Shown: positions 13,067-31,032, counted from the first letter of the stretch. The stretch is DNA of 40,000 bases from Pseudoxanthomonas sp. 10H (GCF_041464125.1 NZ_JBGNUG010000002.1:142596-182595), one strand, 5' to 3'. The notes: generated from the sequence alone by a model not told the origin. A program made the numbers and translations.

Positions 13067-14587
13067 ATGATCCCGATGTCCGTGACTTCCGCCGTCCCCC
13101 GCCTGTCCGATGCCACCCTCGCCGCGCTGCCGGCAGCGGTACGGCGTCCCGCCTACGATCGCGCCGGCACGCGCATCGGCGTGGTCCACTTCGGCCCCGG
13201 CGCGTTCCATCGCGCGCACCAGGCCGTGTACTTCGACGACCTGCTCGCGTCCGATCCGGACTGGGCGATCAGCGCGGTGTCGCTGCACAGCGCCGGCGTG
13301 CGCGACGCGCTGCGCCCGCAGGACGGCCTGTACACGCTGGCGCTGCTGGACCAGGCGCAGGCCGACGGGTCGCCGGCGCTGCGCGTGGTCGGCTCGATCC
13401 GCGAAGTGCTGTGCGCGCCGGAGGAGGGCGCGGCGGTGCTGGCGCGGCTGGCCGACCGCGACGTGCGGCTGGTGACCCTGACCATCACCGAGAAGGGCTA
13501 CTGCCTGTCGCCGGACGGGGTGGACCTGCAGCACCCGGACATCGTGCGCGACCTGGCCACGCTTGACGCGCCGACCCGTGCACCCGTCAGTGCGCCCGTC
13601 AGTGCCATTGGCTGGCTGGTCGCCGGCCTGCGCGCGCGCCGCGCGCAGGGGCTGGAGCCGTTCACCGTGCTCAGCTGCGACAACCTGGCCGACAACGGCG
13701 GCCGCCTGCGCCGCGCGGTGCTGCAGTTCGCGCGCCAGTCCGATCCCGCGCTGGCCGACTGGATCGACACCGAAGTCGCATTCCCGCGCTCGATGGTCGA
13801 CAGCATCACCCCGGCCACCGACGACGCGCTGCGCGCCCGGGTCGCCGCGCAGCTCGGCATGGACGACGCCTGGCCGATCCAGCGCGAGCCGTACACGCAG
13901 TGGGTGGTGGAAGACGATTTCCGCAACGGCCGCCCGCCGCTGGAGCGCGCCGGCGTGGTCCTGAGCGACGACATCGCCGGCTACGACAAGGCCAAGCTGC
14001 GGCTGCTCAATGCGCCGCATTCCACGCTCGCCTACCTCGGCTCGCTGATGGGGATCGAGGCGGTGGCCGACGCGATGCGCGAGCCGGCGCTGGCCGGTTT
14101 CGTCGCCAGGCTGATGCACGAGGACATCGTGCCGTCGCTGCAGCTGCCGCAGGGCTTCGATCCGGACGCGTACATCGAGGCGATCCTGGCCCGCTTCCGC
14201 AACCCGGCCATCCGCCACCTGCTCGCGCAGATCGCCTGGGACGGCTCGCAGAAGATCCCCGTGCGCCTGCTCGGCACGATCGCCGAGGCGCTGGCCGCCG
14301 GCCGCGCCGTCGACCGGCTGTGCCTGCCGGTGGCCGGCTGGCTGCGGTTCGTGCGCCGCCAGTCGCTGGCGGGCGTGGCGATCGTCGATCCGCTGGCCGA
14401 CGCGCTGGCGCGGATCGGCGCGGCCACCACCGGCGAAGCCGCGCACGACGTCGATGCGTTCCTCGCGCTCGATGGCGTGTTCGGCCCGCTGGCCGGCGAC
14501 GCGCGTTTCGTCGAGGCGTTGCGCCGCGCGTACGCCGCGCTCGGCGACGGCTCGCCGGCCGCGGTGGCGCGCGCGCTGGCGGCGTGA
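13067..14587 (+). CDS. uxuB: mannitol-dehydrogenase-family oxidoreductase, probable fructuronate reductase (D-mannonate oxidoreductase)
   Basis: The dinucleotide-binding N-terminus is IGVVHFGPGAFHRAHQAVY. A long-chain mannitol dehydrogenase C-terminal domain follows (MVDSITPATD, KLRLLNAPHSTLAYLG). Its position in a hexuronate cluster fits. The start is ATG 13067 or 13076. Confidence 0.85.
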   Translation: MIPMSVTSAVPRLSDATLAALPAAVRRPAYDRAGTRIGVVHFGPGAFHRAHQAVYFDDLLASDPDWAISAVSLHSAGVRDALRPQDGLYTLALLDQAQADGSPALRVVGSIREVLCAPEEGAAVLARLADRDVRLVTLTITEKGYCLSPDGVDLQHPDIVRDLATLDAPTRAPVSAPVSAIGWLVAGLRARRAQGLEPFTVLSCDNLADNGGRLRRAVLQFARQSDPALADWIDTEVAFPRSMVDSITPATDDALRARVAAQLGMDDAWPIQREPYTQWVVEDDFRNGRPPLERAGVVLSDDIAGYDKAKLRLLNAPHSTLAYLGSLMGIEAVADAMREPALAGFVARLMHEDIVPSLQLPQGFDPDAYIEAILARFRNPAIRHLLAQIAWDGSQKIPVRLLGTIAEALAAGRAVDRLCLPVAGWLRFVRRQSLAGVAIVDPLADALARIGAATTGEAAHDVDAFLALDGVFGPLAGDARFVEALRRAYAALGDGSPAAVARALAA

Positions 14588-14731
14588 CGTCGGAGGGCCA
14601 TGCCGCGAGCCCCAGGCATCGGCGGTCCGGCCCTCCGTGTTGAAGCGGTACCTCCGGCGCCCGCCCGGAGGGCGATGCAAGGAAAGCGCGTCCCGGAGTA
14701 GCTGTTCCCACCCTGTCCCGTGGAGCCCCAC

Positions 14732-15580
14732 ATGCCTGCGACCCTGACCCGCCACACCACGCCCGACGGCCCGCGCTGGGCGCTCGATGGCCACTGGCTG
14801 CCGGCCGACTTCCACCTCGGGGCCTGGCTGGCGCTGCCGGCGGCGCAGGCCGACGCGCAGCTGGCCGCGCTGCCGCGCGGCGGCGCGGTCGGCGATGCGC
14901 CGCGGCTGGCGCCGATCGAGGACGCGCAGGAAGCCTGGGCCAGCGGCGTGACCTACCTCAGCAGCCGGATGGCGCGCGAGGCCGAATCGCAGAACGCCGA
15001 CGTCTACGCCAAGGTCTATTCGGCGGCGCGGCCGGAGCTGTTCTTCAAGGCCGCCGGCTGGCGCGTGCGCGGTCCCGGCGCCGGCATCCGGGTGCGCGCC
15101 GACAGCCACTGGAACGTGCCCGAGCCCGAGCTGGTCCTGCTGGTCGACGCGGCCGGCACGATCCGCGGCTGCACCGCCGGCAACGACGTGTCCTCGCGCA
15201 GCATCGAAGGCGAGAACCCGCTGTACCTGCCGCAGGCCAAGGTCTACGACGGCGCCTGCGCGATCGGCCCGGCGATCCGCCTGTGCGGCGCCGACGCGCT
15301 GCGCGACCTGCCGATCTCGCTGGCCATCGACCGCGGCGGCACCCGCGTGTTCTCCGGCGCCACCCGCACCTCGCAGATCAAGCGCACGCTGGAAGAGCTG
15401 GCCGGCTACCTGTGCCGCGAGCTGAGCTTCCCGCACGGCGCGTTCCTGTTCACCGGCACCGGCGTGGTCCCCGGCGAGGACTTCACCCTGCAGGCCGGCG
15501 ACGTGGTGCGCATCGACATCGACGGGCTGGTGCTGGAGAACGCGGTCGAAGACGCCGCGCCCGGGAGCGCGGCGCCATGA
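14732..15580 (+). CDS. fumarylacetoacetate hydrolase (FAH) family protein; candidate 2-keto-3-deoxy-pentonate dehydratase
   Basis: GGAG lies 6 nt before the ATG at 14732. The C-terminal FAH fold signature is [13 protein letters not shown]...[18 protein letters not shown]...[34 protein letters not shown]. The gene is coupled by an ATGA overlap to the following sugar-acid dehydratase. The specific substrate is inference. Confidence 0.75.
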
Positions 15581-18979: not shown

Positions 18980-19540
18980 CGCAAGCCACGGAGCCTTGCG
19001 CGCACGGCAAAGGGCCCCGTGACCGGAGTTCCCGGGCCTCGCGCGCGAGGCACATCGCCTTGCGACCGGAGCCCTGGAGCCTGGTGCGCGAGGCAAAAAG
19101 CCCCGCGATCGGAGCCCTCGAGCCCCGTGCGCAAGGCAAAAAGCCTTGCGCGCAAGCCTCCGAGCCTTGCGATCGGAGCCCTGGAGCCCCGTGCCTAAGG
19201 CAAAAAGCCCCGCGATCGGAGCCCTGGAGCCCCGTGCGCAAGGCAAAAAGCCCCGCGATCGGGGCCCTGGAACCTCGTGCGCAAGGCAAAAAGCCTTGCG
19301 ATCGGAGCCCTGGAGCCCCGTGCCCATGGCATAAAGCCCCGTGATCGGAGCCCTGGCGCCCCGTGCGCGAGGCCAAAAGCCCCGTGATCGGGCCCCGGAG
19401 CCCCGTGCGCAAGGCAAAAAGCCTCGTGATCGGAGCCCTGGAGCCTCGTGCGCAAGGCGAAAAGCCTTGCGCGCAAGCCTCCGACCCTTGCGCGCAGGCC
19501 CGGAAGCCTTGCGCGCAGCGCCTGGGGCCTTGCCGGCTTG
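18980..19540. repeat. tandem array of ~10 copies of a 43-bp unit (consensus GTGCGCAAGGCAAAAAGCCCCGCGATCGGAGCCCTGGAGCCCC) with a nested ~21-bp sub-repeat (CCTTGCGCGCAAG core)
   Basis: Well-phased units were read at 19084, 19127 (64 bp, carrying a 21-bp insertion), 19191, 19234, 19277, 19320, 19363 (42 bp), 19405 and 19448. Degenerate copies occur on both ends. The array lies between the convergent gntP and intI 3' ends. Confidence 0.9.
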
Positions 19541-19562
19541 CCGCCGCCGGCCGCGCGACCCG

Positions 19563-20570
19563 TCAGCGGTCCAACGGACTCAGCACCCCGTGCGCGCCCC
19601 GGTTGAGGACATGGGTGTAACGCTGCGTGGTCGCCACGTCCTTGTGGCCGAGCAGCTCCTGCACCGTGCGGATGTCGGCCCCGGCTTCCAGCAGGTGGGT
19701 GGCGAAGCAGTGGCGCAGGGTGTGCGGCGTGACCGGCCGGTCGAAGCCCGACTCCAGCGCCGCCCGCCGCACCGCCTTCTGCAGCACCTTCTCGTCGATG
19801 TGGTGGCGCCGCTGCACGCCATCGCGCGGGTCCACCGAGAGGCGCGTGGCCGGGAACACGTACCGCCAGGCCAGCTCCACCGCCGCGTTCGGATACTTGC
19901 GCGCGAGCGCATGCGGCAGGTGCACGCGGCCGAACCCCGCCGCGAGGTCGCGCGCGTGCAGCACGCGCACCTCGGCCAGCTGGCGCGCCAGCGCTTCGCG
20001 CAGCGCCGCCGGCAGCACGGTCATCCGGTCCTTGCCGCCCTTGCCGTCGCGCACGAGCAGTTCGTTGCGCGCCAGGCCCACGTCCTTGACCCGCAACCGC
20101 ACGCATTCCATGAGGCGCAGGCCGCTGCCGTAGAGCAGGCCGGCCATCAGCGCCTCGCGCCCGGCCAGGCGGGCGAGCAGCTGCCCGACCTGCGCCCGCG
20201 ACAGCACCACCGGCAGCCGCTGCGGCCGCCTGGCCCGGACCACGTTCTCCATCCACGGCAGCTCGATCCCCAGCACCTCCCGGTAGAGGAACAGCAGCGC
20301 CGACAGGGCCTGGTTCTGGGTGCTGGCGGCGACGTGGTCGCGGGTCGCCAGGCGGGTGAGGAAAGCCTCCACCGCCACCCCGTCAAGTTCGCGCGGATGC
20401 CGCGGCAGGTTCGCCCGGATATACCGGCGGATCCAGTACAGGTACGCCTGCTCGGTGCGCAGGCTGTAGTGCCTGAGCCGCATCCGGCCGCGCACCTGCT
20501 CCAGCAGGCGCGGCTCCCCGCCCTGGCGTCCGCCGGAAGATATCGGGGTGTGCTCGCCGTCATAAGACAT
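19563..20570 (-). CDS. intI: integron integrase IntI (tyrosine recombinase), apparently intact
   Basis: 335 aa. AAGGAGG lies 7 nt upstream of the ATG. The N-terminal block is [30 protein letters not shown]...[15 protein letters not shown]. The IntI-specific insertion is [25 protein letters not shown]. The catalytic blocks are [33 protein letters not shown] and RYTHV. There are no internal stops. Confidence 0.95.
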
Positions 20571-20729
20571 ATCGGGGCCTCCTTGCCGCCTTTACCCGGC
20601 AGCGTGGCCCCGTCGCGGACCCCGGCGGTATCGGCCAAGTCCGTGATCGGCGTAGGAGTTTCTCGATTGACGGCCCGCCGGACGTGGCCACAGACTCGGC
20701 GCTACACCCCTGCTGGGGGTCTACTGGTA

Positions 20730-20736
20730 GTTAGGC
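20730..20736 (+). other. attI recombination core site (G|TTAGGC)
   Basis: This is the first GTTRRRY core downstream of the intI start, 160 bp from the intI ATG. The TTAGGC that follows is complementary to the R'' (GCCTAA) of the first attC at 20917, as expected for an inserted cassette. Confidence 0.75.
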
Positions 20737-20916
20737 GGGTTGTGGCGTTCGTGTTTGGGGTGGGTCGTCGGACTTCGGTAGGGGAATCGCAATGGATCGT
20801 TGGCGTGCGGCATCGCAGCGGGTCGGACGCGGGGAAGGCGTTCGGTCGGCGCGCGTCTCGCACAATCACCAGGCTGGCGCTTCGGCTATCCAGGCTTCTT
20901 GCCTGATGGGTCGCCG

Positions 20917-20976
20917 GCCTAACCACTCGTTCAAGGCGATGCCGCTTCGCGGCACGCCTTAACTCCGGCGTTAGGC
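20917..20976 (+). repeat. attC site 1 (60 bp)
   Basis: GCCTAAC...central stem TGCCGC-TTC-GCGGCA...GTTAGGC. It carries compensatory changes (AAGGCG / CGCCTT) relative to the other attCs (AAGCCG / CGGCTT). Confidence 0.88.
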
Positions 20977-20979
20977 GCG

Positions 20980-21237
20980 ATGAAGCTAAGTGGGTCTATC
21001 AGCAAGCTTGGACTCTTTCTGGCGGTTTCAATGCTGGCGGCTGGCGGCTACCTCACGGCCTTTCCCGCGGACATGGTCGCCTCGCATCCAAATATGATGC
21101 CCCGTGGGAATACACCTTCGCGCTTCGTCACGCCCACGCAGCATGTGACTCCCGCGCAATCCAGGTTCCATGGAATTGCGTTGATGGTTTTTGGCCTGGT
21201 TGTTGGTGCCGTCTCGCTGTACCGGCCCAAGGAGTGA
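20980..21237 (+). CDS. cassette 2 ORF: 85-aa hypothetical small membrane protein (two hydrophobic helices)
   Basis: It is the only sizeable plus-strand ORF in cassette 20971-21312. The ATG lies 9 nt after the cassette boundary. Hydrophobic segments are LGLFLAVSMLAAGGYL and IALMVFGLVVGAVSL. No family was recognised. Confidence 0.6.
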   Translation: MKLSGSISKLGLFLAVSMLAAGGYLTAFPADMVASHPNMMPRGNTPSRFVTPTQHVTPAQSRFHGIALMVFGLVVGAVSLYRPKE

Positions 21238-21258
21238 CCCAGCAATGCTGAAGTTTGC

Positions 21259-21318
21259 GCCTAACAACTCAATCAAGCCGAACTGGCTTCGCCAGTCGGC
21301 TTATCTCGGGCGTTAGAG
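21259..21318 (+). repeat. attC site 2 (60 bp)
   Basis: GCCTAACAACTCAATCAAGCCGAACTGGCTTCGCCAGTCGGCTTATCTCGGGCGTTAGAG. R'' complements the cassette start TTAGGC at 20971. Confidence 0.9.
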
Positions 21319-21323
21319 CCCTT

Positions 21324-21803
21324 ATGACGCGGAATCGCGACTTGAAAGGAATAGCCAACAGCCTTGTTGAGACTTTCATCAGTCGCAACAACGACGTGTC
21401 TGGATATTGGGGTATCGGTAAGCTCTACCAAGATGCGCTGACGCACTCGGCTTCAAGCATCGACCTGGATCTCTTGATTGGCATCTCGCAGCCAAACACC
21501 CCCGTTACCCGAGCGGTTGTTCTGCACTACGCCACTTACTTAACATCTAGGCTGGATGGGCTGGCCATCAGTGCCGCTCATATAACTCTTGAGTTCGGAG
21601 CCCTCGTACCACACACAAAGCCCTCGCGGCTCACTTATGGCGATCCATTTGTTTGCGCTGTATCGCTCACTTCGATGCAAGGCCGCACATATGTAGCCTC
21701 ACGCGTCGGTCATTGCGCGCCACACTCTCCGCGAGAGCTCCGTCGTAATCGGGCGGGCTCTAACAATTCATTCAAGCCGAACCCGCTTCGCGGGTCGGCT
21801 TAA
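21324..21803 (+). CDS. cassette 3 ORF: 159-aa hypothetical protein
   Basis: The first ATG lies after the cassette boundary at 21313. The track ORF start at 21255 lies in the previous cassette and attC and is rejected. The last 14 codons (SNNSFKPNPLRGSA*) are encoded by attC3. No recognisable domain. Confidence 0.6.
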   Translation: MTRNRDLKGIANSLVETFISRNNDVSGYWGIGKLYQDALTHSASSIDLDLLIGISQPNTPVTRAVVLHYATYLTSRLDGLAISAAHITLEFGALVPHTKPSRLTYGDPFVCAVSLTSMQGRTYVASRVGHCAPHSPRELRRNRAGSNNSFKPNPLRGSA

Positions 21804-21817
21804 TTCAGGCGTTAGGT
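21758..21817 (+). repeat. attC site 3 (60 bp)
   Basis: CTCTAACAATTCATTCAAGCCGAACCCGCTTCGCGGGTCGGCTTAATTCAGGCGTTAGGT. R'' CTCTAA complements the cassette start TTAGAG at 21313. Confidence 0.9.
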
Positions 21818-21821
21818 GGCC

Positions 21822-22091
21822 ATGGAAGAGCTTCGCGAACTCGAAGAGACTCTGCGCGACCTTGTTCGGCAACTTGGCGAGCCGGAAGCCAAGCAATGGC
21901 GCAAACGCGTCGAGAAATACGTCGATCAGATTGCTTCCGGAAGCACATCTGGCACTCCTGCATTTTTGGCAATGTATCAGGGCGGCATGGGATCATTTCT
22001 AGACTTGCAGGGAGCCAACCCGGAGTCGCATCGGGAGCTACTCGCCTTGCGAGACCGCGCGTATGACTTGGCCAATCGCATCCGCAGATGA
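21822..22091 (+). CDS. cassette 4 ORF: ~90-aa hypothetical, predicted helical, charged N-terminus, GGMGSFLDL motif
   Basis: Start is ATG 21822 (alternative GTG 21816). It is the single ORF in cassette 21812-22161. The sequence MEELRELEETLRDLVRQLGEPEAKQWRKRVEKYV... looks coiled-coil-like. No family assigned. Confidence 0.6.
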   Translation: MEELRELEETLRDLVRQLGEPEAKQWRKRVEKYVDQIASGSTSGTPAFLAMYQGGMGSFLDLQGANPESHRELLALRDRAYDLANRIRR

Positions 22092-22107
22092 ATCTCGCAA
22101 GCTGGCC

Positions 22108-22167
22108 ACCTAACAGTTCCTTCAAGCCGACGCCGCTTCGCGGCGCGGCTTAACTCCGGCGTTAGCC
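22108..22167 (+). repeat. attC site 4 (60 bp)
   Basis: ACCTAACAGTTCCTTCAAGCCGACGCCGCTTCGCGGCGCGGCTTAACTCCGGCGTTAGCC. R'' ACCTAA complements the cassette start TTAGGT at 21812. Confidence 0.9.
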
Positions 22168-22175
22168 ATCACACT

Positions 22176-22982
22176 ATGCGTCAGTTGATTCCCGCAGCAG
22201 TCCTCGCACTTACCGCTGAGCTCAGCTCCGAGCGCGAGACGCACGCCACCTTGGACAGCCTCTTTACGTATGCCGGCGCGCCTGGCGATCCGCCAGAGGG
22301 AAGCAAGCACGCTAAAGCTCTGGCTTGGCTGCGCCGTGCCAATAGCGAGTCTGCCAACCCGCTGCAGGTGTTAGGTCGCATCCTCGAAGGCTACATGGAG
22401 CAGGTACTAGACCCGAACGACCGCTGGGACAAGGAAAAGATTGCCCAACGTGACAAGTTGGTCCGCGCACTGGCAGACGCCAATCTTCAATATGTCAAAG
22501 GTGGCCGAGTCGTCGGGGCCATGGGCACACCGACCAGAACCTTGTCGGAGTTCATTCGCGAGGGTGACCTAGAGTCAATAGATCAAGAATTTCAGCGCGC
22601 GGTCCAGAACGCCGCGACCTCCCCCCGTGAGGCCGTGTCTGCTGCAAGCAACATTCTTGAATCCGTGTGCAAGATCGTGATCTCGGATGAGGGTTTGCCC
22701 ATGCCCTCCAAGCAGGACCTACAGTCAGTGTGGAGTGTTGTGCGCAAGCACCTTGGGATTGATCCGAGCAAGATCGAAGATCAGGATCTTCAGCAGATTC
22801 TTACTGGGCTCATTTCCGTCGTACATGGCATCGGATCGCTGCGTACGCATGCGAGTTCGGCACACGGCGCGGGCAAGGCACCGTACCGCTTGGAGCCGCG
22901 TCACGCCCGGTTGGCTATTCATGCGGCTCACACTCTGGCGCTCTTCGTGCTCGAGTCTTGGAGGAAACGAGGCAATGGCTAA
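22176..22982 (+). CDS. cassette 5 ORF: 268-aa Abi_C / HEPN-like domain protein (AbiJ-like abortive-infection family candidate)
   Basis: The C-terminal ~70 aa, ILTGLISVVHGIGSLRTHASSAHGAGK...RHARLAIHAAHTLALFVLESW, looks like the Abi_C (abortive infection C-terminus) domain as I recall it. It contains an R-x6-H HEPN-type motif (R223..H230, nt 22842-22865). The stop TAA lies inside the attC5 R''. Confidence 0.6.
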   Translation: MRQLIPAAVLALTAELSSERETHATLDSLFTYAGAPGDPPEGSKHAKALAWLRRANSESANPLQVLGRILEGYMEQVLDPNDRWDKEKIAQRDKLVRALADANLQYVKGGRVVGAMGTPTRTLSEFIREGDLESIDQEFQRAVQNAATSPREAVSAASNILESVCKIVISDEGLPMPSKQDLQSVWSVVRKHLGIDPSKIEDQDLQQILTGLISVVHGIGSLRTHASSAHGAGKAPYRLEPRHARLAIHAAHTLALFVLESWRKRGNG

Positions 22983-23036
22983 CAATTCGTCCAAGCCGAC
23001 GCCGCTTCGCGGCGCGGCTTAACTCAGGTGTTAGGC
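22977..23036 (+). repeat. attC site 5 (60 bp)
   Basis: GGCTAACAATTCGTCCAAGCCGACGCCGCTTCGCGGCGCGGCTTAACTCAGGTGTTAGGC. R'' GGCTAA complements the cassette start TTAGCC at 22162. The cassette ORF stop TAA lies inside R''. Confidence 0.9.
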
Positions 23037-23039
23037 CGC

Positions 23040-23354
23040 ATGACCAACTTCACGCTCCCTTTGTTCTTTGCACTGTTCTGCCTCGCCATTGTTTGGCTGG
23101 TACTAGTGCAAATGCTTTTTCGGGCCTTGGCCGACAAGCATCCCGAGATGCACCAACGCATTGGCAGCCCTCGCGGCTTTGGGGCTCAGGCTACGTCCGC
23201 GCTTCTCAGCTTCCTGCTTACTCGCAAACCCGAATCATTGGGTGATCGCGCGGTTCTGTTACAGGCCAACGTCATGCGCGTTTTGCTGGTCGTCTACGTG
23301 GCCAGCTTTGCCATACTCGTCTACGGCATCATGTCGGCGCAGAATGCGGCCTAA
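23040..23354 (+). CDS. cassette 6 ORF: 104-aa hypothetical membrane protein
   Basis: The ATG at 23040 lies 9 nt after the cassette boundary. Hydrophobic segments are LPLFFALFCLAIVWLVLVQMLF and VLLVVYVASFAILVYGI. The stop lies inside the attC6 R''. Confidence 0.6.
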   Translation: MTNFTLPLFFALFCLAIVWLVLVQMLFRALADKHPEMHQRIGSPRGFGAQATSALLSFLLTRKPESLGDRAVLLQANVMRVLLVVYVASFAILVYGIMSAQNAA

Positions 23355-23408
23355 CAACTCATTCAAGCCGAACTGGCTTCGCCAGTCGGCCTAACTCCGG
23401 CGTTGGGC
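23349..23408 (+). repeat. attC site 6 (60 bp)
   Basis: GCCTAACAACTCATTCAAGCCGAACTGGCTTCGCCAGTCGGCCTAACTCCGGCGTTGGGC. R'' complements the cassette start TTAGGC at 23031. The ORF stop lies inside R''. Confidence 0.9.
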
Positions 23409-23421
23409 CACAGGAGGGTCG

Positions 23422-23649
23422 ATGAAGGACTTCAAGAGGTGGCTAGCCATCTTTCTTCCAGCAATCGGATGCCTCGCTCCTGGCTTGGTTGGCGTCACGA
23501 TTGGCCGCACGTATGCAGCGGCTCTGGGTACCTCTCCCTCTTGGCTAGGCCCGGCAGTCCTTGTCGGCTCAATCGCGTTGGTACTTGTGGGTGTTCTCTT
23601 GCTGCCTGCTGCTTTCAGGTCGCTGAGGCGCGGCAGGCGCGCGGCCTGA
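23422..23649 (+). CDS. cassette 7 ORF: 75-aa hypothetical small membrane protein
   Basis: An AGGAGG RBS lies 4-5 nt before the ATG. Hydrophobic segments are WLAIFLPAIGCLAPGLVGV and PAVLVGSIALVLVGVLLLPAAF. The stop TGA lies inside the attC7 R''. Confidence 0.65.
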   Translation: MKDFKRWLAIFLPAIGCLAPGLVGVTIGRTYAAALGTSPSWLGPAVLVGSIALVLVGVLLLPAAFRSLRRGRRAA

Positions 23650-23703
23650 CTATCCACTCAAGCCGGCACCGGTTCGCGGTGCGGCGTAACTCCGGCGTTA
23701 GGC
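23644..23703 (+). repeat. attC site 7 (60 bp, R'' degenerate: GCCTGAC)
   Basis: GCCTGACTATCCACTCAAGCCGGCACCGGTTCGCGGTGCGGCGTAACTCCGGCGTTAGGC. The length and central stem are conserved, but R'' carries TGAC instead of TAAC. Confidence 0.8.
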
Positions 23704-23720
23704 CTGATGAGGATCCCTTG

Positions 23721-23960
23721 ATGACACATGAGAGTGAAGTAGTAGATTCGCGAATCATGCTTCGGGTTATCAGTGGCGCATTGGCCGCTGTGGGCCTTCT
23801 GTCCGTAGCGTTCGCTGCACTTGAACTCTTCGCTGCTGGCTCAATTGACGGGTGGTCGGGATTGCTTGCGGTTTCCGCTTGCTACGGAATCTACCTGTTC
23901 GGCTGCTACGCAATCACTGGTCGCCTGCCGCTGGGAAGCAGGTTTGGCAAGAAGGGCTGA
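23721..23960 (+). CDS. cassette 8 ORF: 79-aa hypothetical small membrane protein
   Basis: The first ATG lies after the cassette boundary at 23698. Hydrophobic segments are VISGALAAVGLLSVAFAALELF and GLLAVSACYGIYLFGCYAI. The stop TGA lies inside the attC8 R''. Confidence 0.55.
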   Translation: MTHESEVVDSRIMLRVISGALAAVGLLSVAFAALELFAAGSIDGWSGLLAVSACYGIYLFGCYAITGRLPLGSRFGKKG

Positions 23961-24014
23961 CAACTCATTCAAGCCGAACCGGCTTCGCCAGTCGGCTCAG
24001 TTCCGGCGTCAGGC
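23955..24014 (+). repeat. attC site 8, terminal (60 bp; both cores degenerate: GGCTGAC ... GTCAGGC)
   Basis: GGCTGACAACTCATTCAAGCCGAACCGGCTTCGCCAGTCGGCTCAGTTCCGGCGTCAGGC. The central stem has one mismatch. No further attC-like sequence follows. Confidence 0.75.
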
Positions 24015-24246
24015 GGGTAGTGGCGCTCGTATCGGTGGGGCACCGGTCTGGCTGTCCAGACAGGGGCGCCGGTCTGCCAGCGAGCGGTTCCAGTGCGGGG
24101 CGGCAGGATGGCTTGGCTGTTCGTGCGGGCCGCTGCGCAGCCCTGCGAGCTGCACTTGGCACTCCCCGCTGCAGTGCCGTGACCCGTCATTGCAGGCACT
24201 ATGCCGGGCGGCGGACCCGACCGCGCCCCCACCTCGACGACGACCC

Positions 24247-24546
24247 ATGCCCACTGCCCCCGACGACCATTTCTACGACCGCGCCGACGCCCACATCCAC
24301 CTGGCGAACGGACAGCTCAAGGACGCCGACCGCGGACGGGTCAGTGCGTCGTTCCTGTACGGCGCATCCCGCTTCAACGTGCATGTCGCCGCATGCAACA
24401 GCGGGTCGCGCGACGCGCTGGTCGACGGGCGTGCCGGCATCCGCGACTATTACGTGGCCGAGTACGCCAAGATGCTGGAAGCGCACCTGGACGACTACAT
24501 CGCCCATTACCACCGGTACATGTCCAGCGACGACCGGCAGGCCTGA
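24247..24546 (+). CDS. 99-aa hypothetical protein, DUF3144-like
   Basis: The N-terminal FYDRADAHIHLANGQLKDADRGRVSASFLYGASRFN resembles the DUF3144 family pattern as I recall it (FY..A..FI.LAN...). GC3 is high in this frame. Confidence 0.55.
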   Translation: MPTAPDDHFYDRADAHIHLANGQLKDADRGRVSASFLYGASRFNVHVAACNSGSRDALVDGRAGIRDYYVAEYAKMLEAHLDDYIAHYHRYMSSDDRQA

Positions 24547-24681
24547 GCGGTCATCCGTACGCCGTCGCCCGCCGCGCGTGCCGTCCCATGCGTGCCGCGC
24601 ACGCGGGAGTCCTGCGCGGGCTGCACCCATGCCGCGCCGGGGCGGGCCGATTGACCCACGTACGAAAGGAGCCTGCGGTCG

Positions 24682-25188
24682 ATGCCCTTCACCCCCCTGC
24701 ATCTCGGCGCCGGCGCGGTGTTCAAGGCGGTCGCCGGCCGCCGGATGAGCTTCCTGGTCTTCGCCGGCACCCAGGTGCTGATGGACTTGGAGCCCCTGGT
24801 CGGCATCCTCCGCGGCAGTGCGGTCCTGCATGGCCCGACGCACACGCTGGCCGGGGCCGTGCTCATCGGCGGCGTGGGCGCCGTCACCGGCAAGCCGGTG
24901 ACCAATGCGGTGCTGCGGCGGGTGTCGCCGGCGAGCGTGCCGGTCGGCTGGCCGGCGGCGTTCGCCGGCGCCTGGGCCGGCAGCCTGTCGCACATCGTGC
25001 TCGATGCGTTCATGCATGCCGACATGCGGCCGTTCTGGCCGCTCACGTCCGCCAATCCGCTGCTGTACCGGATCGACGTGGACCACCTGGGGCTGCTCTG
25101 CCTGCTCGGCGCCACGGCCGGTGGCGCGGCGGTCCTGTTGCGGCGAACATGGCGGCGCAGGGGCGCGGCGCGCGCGACGGGTGATTGA
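24682..25188 (+). CDS. 168-aa membrane-associated metal-dependent hydrolase-like protein (DUF4184 / YdjM-DUF457-like)
   Basis: An AAGGAG RBS is present. The N-terminus is MPFTPLHLG. The His-rich blocks HGPTHTLAGAVL and SHIVLDAFMHADMRPFWP resemble the YdjM/DUF4184 motifs. Hydrophobic stretches are present. Confidence 0.5.
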   Translation: MPFTPLHLGAGAVFKAVAGRRMSFLVFAGTQVLMDLEPLVGILRGSAVLHGPTHTLAGAVLIGGVGAVTGKPVTNAVLRRVSPASVPVGWPAAFAGAWAGSLSHIVLDAFMHADMRPFWPLTSANPLLYRIDVDHLGLLCLLGATAGGAAVLLRRTWRRRGAARATGD

Positions 25189-25267
25189 GGGGCCCGGGAG
25201 TAAAGCGGGGGCAGGGCCGGGCGAATGCCCGGCCGGGCGGGGGCGATGACGGAAACAGGGGGACGCC

Positions 25268-25651
25268 ATGCGATGGCGCATCGGGATGTCGTTGATCGTG
25301 CTGCTGGCACTGGCCGGCGGCGCGCTGGTGTTCTTCCGCGGGACGCCGCTGGCGCTGTCCGGCGTGGAGGTGGCCAGCGATGTGTGCGATGCATCGCTGG
25401 CGACCGGCACCACGGTACGCAGCCGCTGGTCCGGCGACGCCCTGCACCTGGCGATCGCGCAGGTGGAGAACTGCGGCCTGGGCCTGGAGTCGGTCGCGGT
25501 GCAGCGGGTGGGCGGGCATCTGTTCGTCCGCACCGGCTACCGCGCGCCGGAAGGCCCGCAGCCGGCCTGCTACTGCACCCATCGCACCACCCTGCAGGTC
25601 CGCGGCGTGCCGGTGCGCGACTACCGCGTGCATGCGTACGCATGGCCGTGA
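25268..25651 (+). CDS. 127-aa hypothetical protein with N-terminal signal/anchor
   Basis: The ORF has strong GC3 bias. The hydrophobic N-terminus is MSLIVLLALAGGALVFF. It has four Cys. No family was recognised. Confidence 0.5.
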   Translation: MRWRIGMSLIVLLALAGGALVFFRGTPLALSGVEVASDVCDASLATGTTVRSRWSGDALHLAIAQVENCGLGLESVAVQRVGGHLFVRTGYRAPEGPQPACYCTHRTTLQVRGVPVRDYRVHAYAWP

Positions 25652-25681
25652 CCCGGACGGCGCCCTGCGCCGGGAGCGCTG

Positions 25682-26194
25682 ATGGCCATCCGTGACCGGC
25701 TCGATGCGCGCTGCCCGCGCTGCGGCGGACGCGCGCTGTTCGTGGAGCCTTACGTCTTCAGCGCGAAGCCGGTGGCCGAGGCGGGCATCCGTCGCTGGGG
25801 CGGCTGGCACATCCGCGAGCGTTATCCGGCGCTGCTGCCCTGGCAGGCGCCGAAGGGCAGCACGCACACCTTCCTCACGGACGGGCCTTCGGATGGCCAG
25901 GGCTACCGGCTGCTGCATCGCGGGGTGGTCGAGTGCGCACGGTGTGGTCCGCCATTCGTGCACACGCTGGCGTGGCCCGACGATGCCTGGTGGCAGTGGT
26001 CGATCCGCGGCAGGCTGCTCTGGGCCTGGGATCGCGAACACGCGCTGCAGATCCTGGCCTACGTCCGCGCCAGCGACCGCCCGCCGCGGTCGACCTCCGG
26101 CCCGCTCGGCAGCATCCCCAGCGATTTCCTGACCGCGAAGGCGCGGCCGGCGGTGGTCAAGGCGATCGAGCGTTCGCTCGGCGCGGCGGGCTGA
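25682..26194 (+). CDS. 170-aa hypothetical protein with split zinc-ribbon-like CxxC pairs
   Basis: CPRCGG lies near the N-terminus and CARCG ~75 aa later. The protein is Trp-rich (WWQWSIRGRLLWAW). Codon bias is good. No family was recognised. Confidence 0.5.
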   Translation: MAIRDRLDARCPRCGGRALFVEPYVFSAKPVAEAGIRRWGGWHIRERYPALLPWQAPKGSTHTFLTDGPSDGQGYRLLHRGVVECARCGPPFVHTLAWPDDAWWQWSIRGRLLWAWDREHALQILAYVRASDRPPRSTSGPLGSIPSDFLTAKARPAVVKAIERSLGAAG

Positions 26195-27468: not shown

Positions 27469-30400
27469 TCAGTCGCAGCCGCGCGTGCGGGCCTGCGCCG
27501 CCCAGCCCAGCGCGCCGTCGATCATCGCCAGGTGCAGCGGCTCGGCATAGGTCGCGGCCTGGTGGCCGAGCGCGGAATAGAACACCCGGCCCGTGCCGAT
27601 GCAGCGGGTCCACACGACCGGGTGGTCGCCCATGCGCTGCTTCGGGTCGGGTTCGTAGGTGGTTTCGTCCAGGCGCGCCAGGATCCGGGTGCCGTGGCCG
27701 CTGGGCACGCGGTCGAAGGCGTACCACTCTTCCTCGCGCTGCCAGCGCGCCGGCAGCGGGCGCATCGCCGGGTGGCCAGGCTCGGCCACCGCGACGACAC
27801 CCTGCTGGAACTGCGGCGCATAGGTATGGCCGATGAACCGCGCGCCCAGCACGGTGTCGGCGTACCAGCGCCAGTCGTAGTGGGGGTCGCCGCCGGCGCC
27901 GTGCAGGGCGACCAGGCCGCCGCCCTGCTCGAGCCAGTGGCGGAAGGCATCGCGCTGGGTGGGCAGGAACGTGTCGCCGCTGGTGCTGTTGAGCACGACC
28001 ACGTCGAACTTCGCCAGCGCCTCCGGATTGAACAGCGCGGCGTTCTCGCTCACGTACACGTCCCAGCCGCGGGCCTCGCCCAGCCGGCGCAGGGCCTGGT
28101 TGGCGGCCTGGATCTGCGCGTCGTCGCGGAAGCCGTTGGTCTTGGAGAACACCAGCACCGCGCGATCGCGCACGAACGCGGGCAGCGGCGGTGGCACCGT
28201 GTCCATCACCGGCGTCGGCCAGTGGGGTGGGGTCTTGACGAAGGGCTGGCCGCCGACCTGGAGCGTGGCGCTGTCGCCACGCAGGTCGCCCGACTCGGCG
28301 TGCACCGTCACCATGCCCTGCTGCCCGGGCTGGCCGGCGATGATCGCCAGCACCTGGCCGCTGAACGCATCGCGCGCGGGCGAGGGGAACGGGGTCATGT
28401 CGGTGGGATCGCCGTTGTCGGTGGCCACGATCCGCGCCGGACCGTCGAGGCGGAAGCGCACGTGGTCGCTGGCGGTGGGCACCGGGTTGCCTTCGGCGTC
28501 GACGAAGCCGACCGTGGCGAAGGCCAGGTCGCGGCCGTCGCCGGCGATGTGGCCGCGGTCCAGCGACAGCTCCAGCCTCGCCGGCGCGCCGGCGGTGCGC
28601 ACCGTCTCGCTGGCCCACGGCTTGCCGTCGCGGTACGCCTGCACCCGCACCTCGCCGGGCTGGTAGACGACCTCGTCCCAGCGCAGGCGGTACTCGTACG
28701 GACCCTTCTTCTTCCGGCCTTGCGAAACGCCGTTGACGAACAGCTCGGCCTCGTCGCCGGAGGTGAACACATGCACCGGCGTGACCTGGCCTTCGCGGCC
28801 GGGCCAGGTCCAGTGCGGCAGCAGGTGCGCCATCGGCAGGTCCGGGCGCCAGCGCGACTGGTACAGCCAGTAGCGGTCCTTGGGGAAGCCGGCCAGGTCG
28901 ACGATGCCGGTATACGAGCTGCGCGCGTCGTAGTAGGGCGTCGGCTCGCCGAGGTAGTCGAAGCCGTTCCAGACGAACTCGCCGGCCACGTACGGATGGC
29001 GGTCCAGTGCGGCGAACACCTTGTCGGCGGAGGAGCCGAAATCGACCGCATGCAGTTCGTAGGCGCTGACCTGGCTGATGGAGGAATCGCCGCCGCTGCC
29101 GTCGCGGATCGGCGCGCTGGTTTTCGGCGTGACCGGGAACAGGTAGACGCCGCGGCTGCTGGCGGCCGAGGCGGTCTCGCTGCCCATGATCAGCTTGCCG
29201 GGGAACGCGGCGCGGAACGCCGGGTACTGTGGCGGCGTGCGGATGCGGTCGGTGCCGTCGAACTCCGGCTCCTGGCGGATGCCCTCGCCCTGGTAGTTCA
29301 GGCTGATGGTGTCGAACGCGGTGGCGAACGGCATGTCCGGCTTGGCCCAGTTCATCGAGGCGGCCGTGGGCCGGGTCGGATCCTCCTCGTGGGCGATCGC
29401 GGTGAGCCGGCGGCCGATCGCCGCGCCTTCCTCGCCGGTGTACTGCTCGCCGACCTCGTTGCCCACGCTCCAGGCGATGACCGAGGGATGGTTGCGGTCG
29501 CGGCGGACCATCGCGCGCAGGTCGGCCTCGTGCCAGTCGGGGAAGACCAGGTGGAAATCCAGCGGCGTCTTCTTCCGTTCCCAGGAGTCGAACACCTCGT
29601 CGATCACCAGCAGGCCCATCCGGTCGGTCAGCTCGAGCAGCTGCGGATCGGGCGGGTTGTGCGCCAGGCGGATCGCGTTGACGCCCATGCCGCGCAGGAT
29701 CTCCAGCTGGCGCTCGGCCGCGCGCAGGTTGAACGCGGCGCCGAGCGCGCCGAGGTCGTGGTGCTGGTTGACGCCCTGCAGGCGGACCGGTTCGCCGTTG
29801 ACGACCACGCCGCGGTCCGGATCGAAGCGGACGTCGCGGATGCCGAAGCGGGTTTCGTAGCGGTCCACGACCCTGCCGTCGCGGGTGACGGTGGTGATGG
29901 CGACGTGGCGGTGGGGCTGCTGGGACGGCGGCGGGCCCCACAGGCGCGGGCGGGCGATGCGTGCCGAGGCCTGCGCGCGCGCGCTTGCGCCGGCACCGAG
30001 GTCGAGGGCCTGCGGCGCGATGCGTGCGACGGGCGGGCCGTCGGGGCGGCCCGCTTCGTCCAGGGCGAAGATCTCGCTGGCGACCAGCACGCGCGCGGCG
30101 CGTGGCCCGGCGTTGTCGACATCCACGCGCAGGTCCACCGTCGCCGCGTCCGCCGACACGTCGTGGGTGGTGACGTGTGTGCCCCACTGCGCCACGTGCA
30201 CCGGGTCGGCGATGGTCAGCCACACGTCGCGGTACAGGCCGCCGCCCGGGTACCAGCGCGCCGATTCGGGCGGATTGTCCAGGCGGATGACGAGCTGGTT
30301 GTCGCCGCCGAACTCGATGTACGGGGTGAGGTCGACGCGCCAGGAGTTGTAGCCGTAGGGCCAGCCGCCGACCAGCCGGCCGTTGAGCCAGACCGTGGCA

Positions 30401-31014
30401 TAGGACATCGCGCCGCCCACATCGAGGAACACGCGCCGGCCCGCGGCGCTGGCGGGAAGGTCGAGCGCACGCCGGTACCAGCCCACGCCCCAGCTCGGCA
30501 GGCGGCCCATGCCGCCGTACGGGCCTTCGACCAGGAACGGGCCGGCGATCGCCCAGTCGTGCGGGAGGGTCACCGTCTGCCACGCGCGGTCGTCGAAGTC
30601 GCGCTGCAGGAAGGCGACGTCGCCGCCGGGCGGCGGGCCGTCGGGGCGCGCATGCCGGCGCGCCGGATCGGCGATGAAGGGATTGGCGGTCGGCAGGATC
30701 CACGGCTTGAGCACGGGGCGCGTGCGCTCGACCTTTTCGGCCGCGTCGGGTCGCGCATCGGCGACCTTGCCGTCGGCGCTCTGCACGACCTCGGGGCGCA
30801 CGTCGTAGTCCAGGCGGCCGTCCACGCCCGGCGGATCGCCGCGGTGGAAGCGCCAGCCGTCGTCGAGGCGGATGCGTTCGCGCGGGCCGTCGGCGGACGC
30901 CGCACGCGCAGGAAGCACGACGGCCGCGGCGAGCGCGAACAGCAGCAGGAGGGCGGCGGCGCCGGTGCCTGCGGGGCGGGGAATCGCGGGCGCTGCCGCC
31001 GGGGTCTTCTGCAT
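27469..31014 (-). CDS. GH2 glycoside hydrolase fused to a C-terminal ThuA-like domain, secreted (1181 aa)
   Basis: A GGAGG RBS and a signal peptide are present. GH2 blocks are WLNGRLVGGWPYGYNSWRVDLTPYI, GVNAIRLAHNPP and IAWSVGNEV. The last ~240 aa (LVFSKTNGFRDD...LVALHGAGG...MGDHPVVWTR..GTGRVFYSALGH) match the ThuA (trehalose-utilisation) domain pattern. Confidence 0.85.
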   Translation of the reverse strand: MQKTPAAAPAIPRPAGTGAAALLLLFALAAAVVLPARAASADGPRERIRLDDGWRFHRGDPPGVDGRLDYDVRPEVVQSADGKVADARPDAAEKVERTRPVLKPWILPTANPFIADPARRHARPDGPPPGGDVAFLQRDFDDRAWQTVTLPHDWAIAGPFLVEGPYGGMGRLPSWGVGWYRRALDLPASAAGRRVFLDVGGAMSYATVWLNGRLVGGWPYGYNSWRVDLTPYIEFGGDNQLVIRLDNPPESARWYPGGGLYRDVWLTIADPVHVAQWGTHVTTHDVSADAATVDLRVDVDNAGPRAARVLVASEIFALDEAGRPDGPPVARIAPQALDLGAGASARAQASARIARPRLWGPPPSQQPHRHVAITTVTRDGRVVDRYETRFGIRDVRFDPDRGVVVNGEPVRLQGVNQHHDLGALGAAFNLRAAERQLEILRGMGVNAIRLAHNPPDPQLLELTDRMGLLVIDEVFDSWERKKTPLDFHLVFPDWHEADLRAMVRRDRNHPSVIAWSVGNEVGEQYTGEEGAAIGRRLTAIAHEEDPTRPTAASMNWAKPDMPFATAFDTISLNYQGEGIRQEPEFDGTDRIRTPPQYPAFRAAFPGKLIMGSETASAASSRGVYLFPVTPKTSAPIRDGSGGDSSISQVSAYELHAVDFGSSADKVFAALDRHPYVAGEFVWNGFDYLGEPTPYYDARSSYTGIVDLAGFPKDRYWLYQSRWRPDLPMAHLLPHWTWPGREGQVTPVHVFTSGDEAELFVNGVSQGRKKKGPYEYRLRWDEVVYQPGEVRVQAYRDGKPWASETVRTAGAPARLELSLDRGHIAGDGRDLAFATVGFVDAEGNPVPTASDHVRFRLDGPARIVATDNGDPTDMTPFPSPARDAFSGQVLAIIAGQPGQQGMVTVHAESGDLRGDSATLQVGGQPFVKTPPHWPTPVMDTVPPPLPAFVRDRAVLVFSKTNGFRDDAQIQAANQALRRLGEARGWDVYVSENAALFNPEALAKFDVVVLNSTSGDTFLPTQRDAFRHWLEQGGGLVALHGAGGDPHYDWRWYADTVLGARFIGHTYAPQFQQGVVAVAEPGHPAMRPLPARWQREEEWYAFDRVPSGHGTRILARLDETTYEPDPKQRMGDHPVVWTRCIGTGRVFYSALGHQAATYAEPLHLAMIDGALGWAAQARTRGCD

Positions 31015-31032
31015 CGTGCCGTCGCCTCCGTA

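Follow-up and report, generated by a model that had tools for sequence, protein, structure and literature searches.

The question raised by this locus is whether the region 19563-24014 of a 40,000-nucleotide stretch from Pseudoxanthomonas sp. 10H (GCF_041464125.1, NZ_JBGNUG010000002.1:142596-182595; this whole stretch is termed the window below, and positions are counted from its first letter) holds a complete chromosomal integron, that is, an integrase gene intI, an attachment site attI and an array of gene cassettes with their attC sites, and, if it does, whether this integron is resident at its site and can still exchange cassettes. An earlier reading of the DNA, made from the sequence only (termed the sequence-only reading), had proposed exactly such an integron, with an intact integrase (IntI) and eight cassettes, lying among xylan genes. 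Based on the match to the integrase model TIGR02249, on a covariance model of the attC sites and on the comparison with the sister strain NC8, this proposal, which withstood each of the refuting tests named in that reading, is upheld: judged from its sequence, the region very probably holds a chromosomal integron that is structurally complete and belongs to the Xanthomonadales (Lysobacterales) type.

We consider the integrase first. The gene is one uninterrupted reading frame of 335 amino acids, with a ribosome-binding site (RBS) AAGGAGG 7 nt 5' of its ATG, and its product matches the NCBIfam model TIGR02249, 'integron integrase', with 472.1 bits (cut-off 265) over model positions 1-314 of 315, so that a model specific to integron integrases is matched at its full length. 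The alignment with the Vibrio cholerae integrase VchIntIA (PDB 2A3V; E=1.7e-92) needs a single gap of one residue, which falls inside the additional segment (query 193-240). In this alignment the residues R152, K177, H283, R286, H309 and Y318 of IntI occupy the places of the catalytic R135, K160, H267, R270, H293 and Y302 of VchIntIA, and the IntI-specific segment is kept, including W235, P248 and H256-H257. The gene is therefore, as had been described beforehand, of full length, with a strong RBS, the IntI-specific insertion and the catalytic blocks, and the RefSeq record WP_372018036.1 already carries the name 'integron integrase'. By all the sequence criteria available, intI is intact.

The array was said to contain eight attC sites of exactly 60 bp, and both their coordinates, which are given in Table 1 with those of the other features, and the covariance model agree with this. 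In the model the eight sites score 72-84.5 bits and are the only such elements in the window; the next best score, 15.6 bits, comes from the reverse strand of these sites, and elsewhere no match is above 12.4 bits. Thus all eight elements score and nothing else in the window does: with the filters off, no further attC and no second array is present in the 40 kb, and no Rfam family is matched anywhere in it. It should be noted that the model was built from the eight sites themselves, so that its scores in the window are circular. It was therefore applied to 80 loci of IntI relatives from GTDB, where all 259 matches lie upstream of intI and on the intI strand, with the 60-bp attC type occurring upstream of intI in dozens of Lysobacterales genomes.

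The predicted folding of the sites is also that of attC. The bottom strands show an R stem of 5-7 bp, an unpaired spacer, an L stem in which a G and a T are bulged, and a GAA loop, the R stem being absent from the minimum-energy fold of attC4 and attC7. Seven of the eight sites fold better than shuffled sequence (z from -2 to -5.5), and attC7 folds no better than it (z = -0.59). In the alignment of the sites, whose mean column identity is 86%, 93.5% of the cells pair and seven pairs have changes on both sides; none of 500 shuffles attains the covariation score of the real alignment, and in slid controls no more than 43% of the cells pair. The AAC/GTT triplets are canonical in six of the eight sites. 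The two others are attC7, the lowest-scoring site (72 bits), with R'' GCCTGAC (AAC to GAC), and attC8, in which both triplets are mutated (R'' GGCTGAC, R' GTCAGGC). Moreover, bases 3-60 of attC5 are identical, at 58 of 58 positions, to the attC of aadB (ant(2'')-Ia) in class 1 integrons on clinical plasmids: with attC5 as the query, 2563 plasmid records match, 322 of them at 99% identity or more, and the example that was checked reads intI1-aadB-aac(6')-Il-blaIMP-1.

By contrast, it might be supposed that the 60-bp elements are ordinary palindromes, such as repetitive extragenic palindromic (REP)-like sequences or terminators, lying beside an integrase of the Xer or phage type, in view of their being GC-rich hairpins at the 3' ends of genes and of the separate 43-bp tandem repeat that adjoins intI. 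If this were true, the recombinase would not be expected to score 472 bits on the integron model and only 146-166 bits on the XerC, XerD and XerA models, under the cut-offs of the latter. Nor would the elements be confined to the array, with those of the relatives always upstream of intI and on its strand, their core sequences would not co-vary with the next cassette rather than within the site, and one of them would not be identical to a proven attC, that of aadB. This explanation can be regarded as refuted.

Next, the position of attI is given by an alignment of the intI-proximal spacer of 10H with those of its 11 closest relatives. In all 12 loci the conserved block CCCC-N5-GGGGTCTACTRGTAGTTAGGY stops at 20736 (GTTAGGY), and the sequence to the right of it is unrelated. 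The closest platform found anywhere, on the metagenome contig L099, has an IntI that is 87% identical in amino acids, and its nucleotide homology with the window is limited to 19548-20738, i.e., to intI and attI. Because both the conserved block and the homology to L099 end there, the crossover of attI is placed at G20730/T20731, and the sequence-only reading, which had located the attI core GTTAGGC at 20730 (20730-20736), agrees with the end of homology among the 11 relatives. An exact 25-mer of the 10H attI has no match in the metagenome contigs.

The layout of the cassettes is consistent with this crossover. Taken together with the preceding G, the first six bases of each of cassettes 1-6, for which complementarity to the cassette's own R'' core had been claimed, complement that core at seven of seven positions; the R' in the same linear site matches at 5-6 of seven positions in cassettes 2-6 and also at seven of seven in cassette 1. 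Such cognate cores are what the insertion of circular cassettes at G^TT predicts, and the footprint of single-cassette insertion is present here in cassettes 1-6. Cassettes 7 and 8 match their own R'' at only five of seven positions and, because of this and of their mutated triplets, are probably no longer mobilisable. Thus, as read from the cores, the six proximal cassettes look mobilisable and the two distal ones, with GAC/GTC for AAC/GTT, are probably fixed. The seven open reading frames (ORFs) of the cassettes are all directed away from attI, as had been observed, starting 4-20 nt past the upstream core; in cassettes 2 and 4 the stop codon shortly precedes the attC of the cassette, and in the others it lies within it. 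The drop in GC content relative to the flanks that had been pointed out is also real, with values of 0.55-0.65 in the cassettes and of 0.70-0.76 in the flanks.

Based on these features, the following pathway may be proposed. IntI, a tyrosine recombinase, would bind the folded bottom strand of the 60-bp attC on a circular cassette, and recombination of attC with attI would occur at G^TT, between 20730 and 20731, so that new cassettes would enter beside attI and the older ones would be pushed distally. Recombination between two attC sites would excise cassettes as circles. The cassettes, having no promoters of their own and being co-oriented, would be read from a promoter in the spacer between intI and attI. 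In this spacer a TTGAC, followed by a weak CAnAnT-like element about 18 nt downstream, is kept in all 12 aligned loci, and from its invariance we infer that it may be the -35 box of the cassette promoter Pc. As a separate observation on the 5' end of intI, ATATCGGGG is present there twice (20540-20559 and 20569-20588), with one copy overlapping the RBS and the start codon and the other lying about 30 nt into the coding region; the closest relatives have kept both of them, and the doubling could be a regulatory or an alternative-start feature.

Table 1. Features of the integron in the window of Pseudoxanthomonas sp. 10H
Feature	Position	Strand	Description	Basis
intI	19563..20570	-	integron integrase, 335 aa, intact	TIGR02249; PDB 2A3V alignment; RefSeq WP_372018036.1
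TTGAC	20667..20671	+	invariant element between intI and attI, candidate Pc -35 box	12-locus alignment
attI	20701..20736	+	conserved CCCC-N5-GGGG inverted repeat, TCTACTGGTA, core GTTAGGC	alignment of 12 loci
Cassette 1	20731..20970	+	240 bp, GC 0.65, without convincing ORF; attC1 20917-20976	
Cassette 2	20971..21312	+	ORF 20980-21237, 85 aa, two hydrophobic segments; attC2 21259-21318	
Cassette 3	21313..21811	+	ORF 21324-21803, 159 aa, conserved family; attC3 21758-21817	
Cassette 4	21812..22161	+	ORF 21822-22091, 89 aa, DUF6966 at threshold; attC4 22108-22167	
Cassette 5	22162..23030	+	ORF 22176-22982, 268 aa, AbiJ-like HEPN (Abi_C); attC5 22977-23036	
Cassette 6	23031..23402	+	ORF 23040-23354, 104 aa, small membrane protein; attC6 23349-23408	
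Cassette 7	23403..23697	+	ORF 23422-23649, 75 aa, two-transmembrane protein, AGGAGG RBS; attC7 23644-23703	
Cassette 8	23698..24008	+	ORF 23721-23960, 79 aa, two-transmembrane protein; attC8 23955-24014	

Whether cassettes have in fact been exchanged can be seen from the relatives, for which the sequence-only reading had asked for a test of variable cassette content between fixed flanks. The nearest complete genome, that of Pseudoxanthomonas sp. NC8, has in common with 10H the left flank through gntP and the GH10 gene, at 83-91% nucleotide identity. Between gntP and GH10 in NC8 no intI is found by tblastn, and attI is absent; there are three or four attC sites in the same orientation, beginning about 500 bp past gntP (13532-15440 in locus L095, from CP060419) and including a 107-bp empty cassette. 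Because attC sites without intI lie between the shared flanks, NC8 is at this site a CALIN, i.e., a cluster of attC sites without integrase (Cury et al. 2016, PMC4889954), differing in this from 10H with its intact intI and attI. NC8 has no cassette in common with 10H: gntP and GH10 are kept while the cassette content is wholly different, which demonstrates the turnover of cassettes between relatives. It is also noted that many genes are split in the NC8 assembly (GH3, GntP and the mannitol-dehydrogenase-family gene among them), which suggests frameshift-type sequencing errors. An integron beside GH10 was also looked for in P. kaohsiungensis, Soil82 and P. daejeonensis; the first two have other genes and no attC there, and the P. 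daejeonensis contig stops at an insertion sequence (IS) element.

When the window cassettes were searched in 160 IntI loci (80 from GTDB and 80 from metagenomes) and in 17 other fetched loci, only cassette 5 recurred. At least six metagenome runs contain it at 99% nucleotide identity, on contigs of about the size of a cassette, where the homology to the window starts at G^TTAGCC and the attC upstream is different and longer, and a copy with 83% nucleotide identity lies in the four-attC array of Lysobacter daejeonensis. As to details of these contigs, the Logan contigs L083-L088 (SRR31053xxx runs) hold cassette 5; L083 diverges 14 nt into the cassette's attC, after GGCTAACAATTCGT, and L088 ends at the same point. 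Either a truncated attC or a repeat at which the assembly broke could explain this divergence.

On the other hand, there are several points that weigh against a working integron. The array is short, with 8 cassettes, and the triplets of the two distal attCs are damaged. A scan with consensus promoters and terminators gives neither a Pc nor an integrase promoter Pint, its sole match lying inside cassette 8. No SOS control is known for the integrases of Xanthomonadales, which often decay (PMC3108266, PMC12444791). Apart from the window, the integrase, its flanks and cassettes 7-8 occur together in one sample only, SRR33906184, whose recovered sequence shows no difference. Finally, the case for recombination is made from sequences. 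From such points an explanation can be built in which the integron is complete but frozen, with intI intact yet unexpressed or non-recombining and the array a stable, vertically inherited island. The shortness of the array and the degeneracy of its two distal attCs, the lack of a consensus promoter for intI or for the cassettes in the scan, the common loss of integrase activity in Xanthomonas (PMC12444791) and the sister strain NC8, already without intI at the site, would all fit with it. This explanation, however, does not account for an ORF that is intact, with all the catalytic residues and a strong RBS, nor for the perfect cognate cores in cassettes 1-6. Against it also speak the 99% identical cassette 5 in another array context, which implies recent transfer, and the GC content of the cassettes, which is about 15 points under that of the host and thus not ameliorated. 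We consider a frozen array unlikely and infer that IntI is probably still active in strain 10H.

Now we turn to the site itself. The sequence-only reading had placed the platform against a gntP gene preceded by an IlvD/Edd-family paralog, amid xylan genes, and xylan and glucuronate genes are indeed present on both sides. The left flank contains genes for GH67, an acetylesterase, GH43, GH3, a mannitol-dehydrogenase-family protein, an FAA-hydrolase-family protein, a YjhG/YagF xylonate dehydratase and GntP, and the right flank contains those for DUF3144, YdjM, two proteins without assignment, GH10, GH2-ThuA, UxaC, GH115, a major facilitator superfamily (MFS) transporter and a TonB-dependent receptor. 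Chromosomal integrons of Xanthomonas were reportedly described by Gillings et al. 2005 (PNAS 102:4419, as cited in PMC8352920). The Xanthomonas ilvD site was considered as the site of the 10H integron and rejected. The IlvD/Edd-family protein before GntP, which RefSeq names YjhG/YagF D-xylonate dehydratase, is a paralogue with only 31-33% identity to true IlvD, and because of this the resemblance to the ilvD site is a coincidence at the level of the superfamily. A true IlvD adjoins intI in 4 of the 80 GTDB loci, including those of X. arboricola and [Pseudomonas] boreopolis, and in 2 of the 80 metagenome loci, and across the Lysobacterales loci the gene downstream of intI belongs to at least 10 unrelated contexts.

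This variety of neighbours leads to another possible explanation, namely that the integron is not resident but mobile, or that it belongs to an island inserted recently, such as a transposon, an integrative and conjugative element (ICE) or a prophage. It would be in accord with intI and attI forming a discrete block, the homology to L099 running only 15 nt beyond the stop codon of intI on one side and 8 nt beyond the crossover on the other, with the different neighbour of the L099 platform (an aldehyde dehydrogenase gene), with the varying genes downstream of intI and with the identity of attC5 to a clinical attC. Nevertheless, between the xylan genes there is no transposase, IS, conjugation or phage gene, the attCs are as homogeneous as in chromosomal arrays (the mean column identity given above), NC8 too has attCs between gntP and GH10, oriented as in 10H, and the source sequence is a 614-kb chromosomal contig. 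A mobile or newly inserted element is thus highly improbable, and we retain the reading of a resident chromosomal integron.

Several further features of the flanks are recorded here. In the 675-bp spacer between the stop codons of gntP and intI, positions 18990-19533 are taken up by a 43-bp unit, GCCCCGTGCGCAAGGCAAAAAGCCCCGCGATCGGAGCCCTGGA, repeated in tandem about 12 times and made of two sub-units of about 21 bp with GCGC-centred palindromes. The repeat is found only in strain 10H (in the window and in the SRR33906184 Logan contigs), with no copy in NC8 or in the 160 IntI loci, and its candidacy as an attC-like or CRISPR-like element was rejected, since it has no unique spacers and occurs in a single strain. 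On the other side, between the last attC and GH10, four co-oriented genes of host-like GC content (24247-26194) encode a DUF3144 protein, a YdjM-like metal-dependent hydrolase and two unassigned proteins of 127 and 170 aa; no attC remnants are detected among these four genes, and NC8, which has none of the four, has instead a run of small ORFs and a DUF3300/DUF2950 gene. Farther to the right, GH2 and ThuA make one ORF of 1181 aa in 10H (27469-31032, minus strand). ThuA is a separate gene of 245 aa in P. kaohsiungensis and Soil82, and in P. daejeonensis GH2 has 908 aa with no adjoining ThuA called.

We then consider what the cassettes carry. All seven cassette ORFs had been put down as being of unknown function. 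This does not hold for cassette 5, and the product of cassette 4 just attains the threshold of DUF6966. The product of cassette 5 is matched by the Pfam family Abi_C with 2.8e-21 and 75.8 bits (cut-off 24) and by the PADLOC AbiJ model with 2e-14, in its C-terminal part only (profile positions 170-275 of 281), and it has the HEPN-type motif R223-x6-H230. No AbiJ_NTD family matches residues 1-150. It also matches a single PHROG, itself of unknown function, has more than 2000 homologues and is named 'abortive infection family protein' in RefSeq. From these matches, cassette 5 encodes an AbiJ-like HEPN (Abi_C) abortive-infection protein. Four other cassettes (2, 6, 7 and 8) encode proteins of 75-104 aa with two hydrophobic segments each, a relative of the cassette 2 product with at least 90% identity being present on a JGI metagenome contig. 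The cargo would then appear to be partly anti-phage (cassette 5) and partly small membrane proteins. It is noted that other arrays of the family also hold abortive-infection cassettes, namely AbiTii in L099 (1233-2129, minus strand) and AbiJ_NTD4 in the Lysobacter daejeonensis locus L092 (12527-12816), which fits with the published idea that chromosomal integrons store anti-phage genes.

Cassette 3 belongs to a family of 29 homologues that share the motif SRNNDxxGxWGxG and the residues C111, H134 and E138. None of the 29 members has a Pfam match, and cassette 3 itself has no PADLOC or PHROGs match. Its structure model is confident, with a predicted local distance difference test (pLDDT) score of 78.5, and matches no fold in PDB (best Foldseek E=0.21). 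One homologue, P0050, lies inside an array of at least 28 attC sites and other homologues bear attC-encoded tails, so the family is cassette-borne wherever the context could be checked. The protein could be a compact anti-phage or toxin protein of an uncatalogued kind. That one or more of the uncharacterised cassettes, with cassette 3 as the strongest candidate, encode a new single-gene function seems to us rather doubtful.

Cassette 1 shows a different peculiarity. Its start (20730-20752, GTTAGGCGGGTTGTGGCGTTCGT) and the sequence following the array (24008-24030, GTCAGGCGGGTAGTGGCGCTCGT) are identical at 20 of 23 positions (z about 4.7 versus shuffles), GTTAGGCGGGTTGTGGCGTTCGT beginning at the attI crossover and GTCAGGCGGGTAGTGGCGCTCGT at the crossover of the last attC. 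There is no homology between the two places past the 23 bp, and the repeat pair is found only in the 10H genome; when the 19 bp that follow the first four bases were looked for, with up to two mismatches, in the loci fetched up to that point, no further copy was present. The likeness may go back to what originally lay to the right of attI or to the way in which cassette 1 arose, and the cassette, which lacks an ORF and has a host-like GC content, could be the trace of a cassette made from the chromosomal DNA flanking attI.

As for what the locus means, it offers a clean and intact integron of the Xanthomonadales type outside Xanthomonas and at a chromosomal site other than ilvD, with a sister strain in which that site lacks an integrase. 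Moreover, the locus contains an environmental Pseudoxanthomonas cassette whose attC is identical, over 58 of its 60 bases, to the clinical aadB attC, and this identity fits the published view that this order of bacteria feeds cassettes to mobile integrons. Current understanding is left unchanged by the locus. Its value is practical: the array is small and tractable, with six apparently mobilisable cassettes, an AbiJ-like gene and a conserved family of unknown function.

Finally, we compare the 10H integron with known systems. Among these, the superintegron of V. cholerae (VchIntIA with its VCR sites) is similar in the fold and the catalytic residues of the recombinase and in the single-stranded attC hairpin with extrahelical bases that would serve as its substrate, whereas its array has about 180 cassettes with sites of about 120 bp, compared with 8 cassettes and 60-bp sites in 10H. 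The Vibrio intI is controlled by SOS/LexA, whereas canonical LexA control is not expected for the integrases of Xanthomonadales (PMC3108266). The V. cholerae integron also holds a cassette for 'Taranis', a protein with the Abi_C domain that the product of cassette 5 likewise has, and 'Taranis' was shown to be anti-phage (bioRxiv 10.1101/2024.07.02.601686). In the scheme of Cury et al. 2016, a strict sedentary chromosomal integron has more than 19 attC sites, and 10H has only 8.

Much closer are the integrons of its own order. Throughout Xanthomonadales, Pseudoxanthomonas among them, integrons having this type of attC have been documented (Ghaly et al. 2021, PMC8352920). The attC5-aadB identity is the point at which 10H agrees with the 'Xanthomonadales-like' attC clade of that survey, which did not include 10H; the 10H array has no resistance gene. 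In Xanthomonas the integrons lie downstream of ilvD, with frequent decay of the integrase and some abortive-infection cassettes (Colombi et al. 2025, PMC12444791). They differ from that of 10H in genus and in neighbours, which in 10H are gntP and the YjhG/YagF xylonate dehydratase gene, as well as in the 73% GC of the 10H host and in the intact intI and the small array. A literature search gave no paper on the integron of Pseudoxanthomonas sp. 10H itself. In the other respects the two agree. Their integrases belong to the same IntI clade (that of X. arboricola is 66% identical), and both have 60-bp attCs of one type: on the 10H model, the attC lying first upstream of the X. arboricola intI scores 82.5 bits. 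In both, intI is divergent from a co-oriented array of cassettes mostly of unknown function, and in both it is common for relatives to have lost intI with the attC array staying in place. The 10H integron is thus of a well-described kind that is common in its bacterial family and has in part been annotated already.

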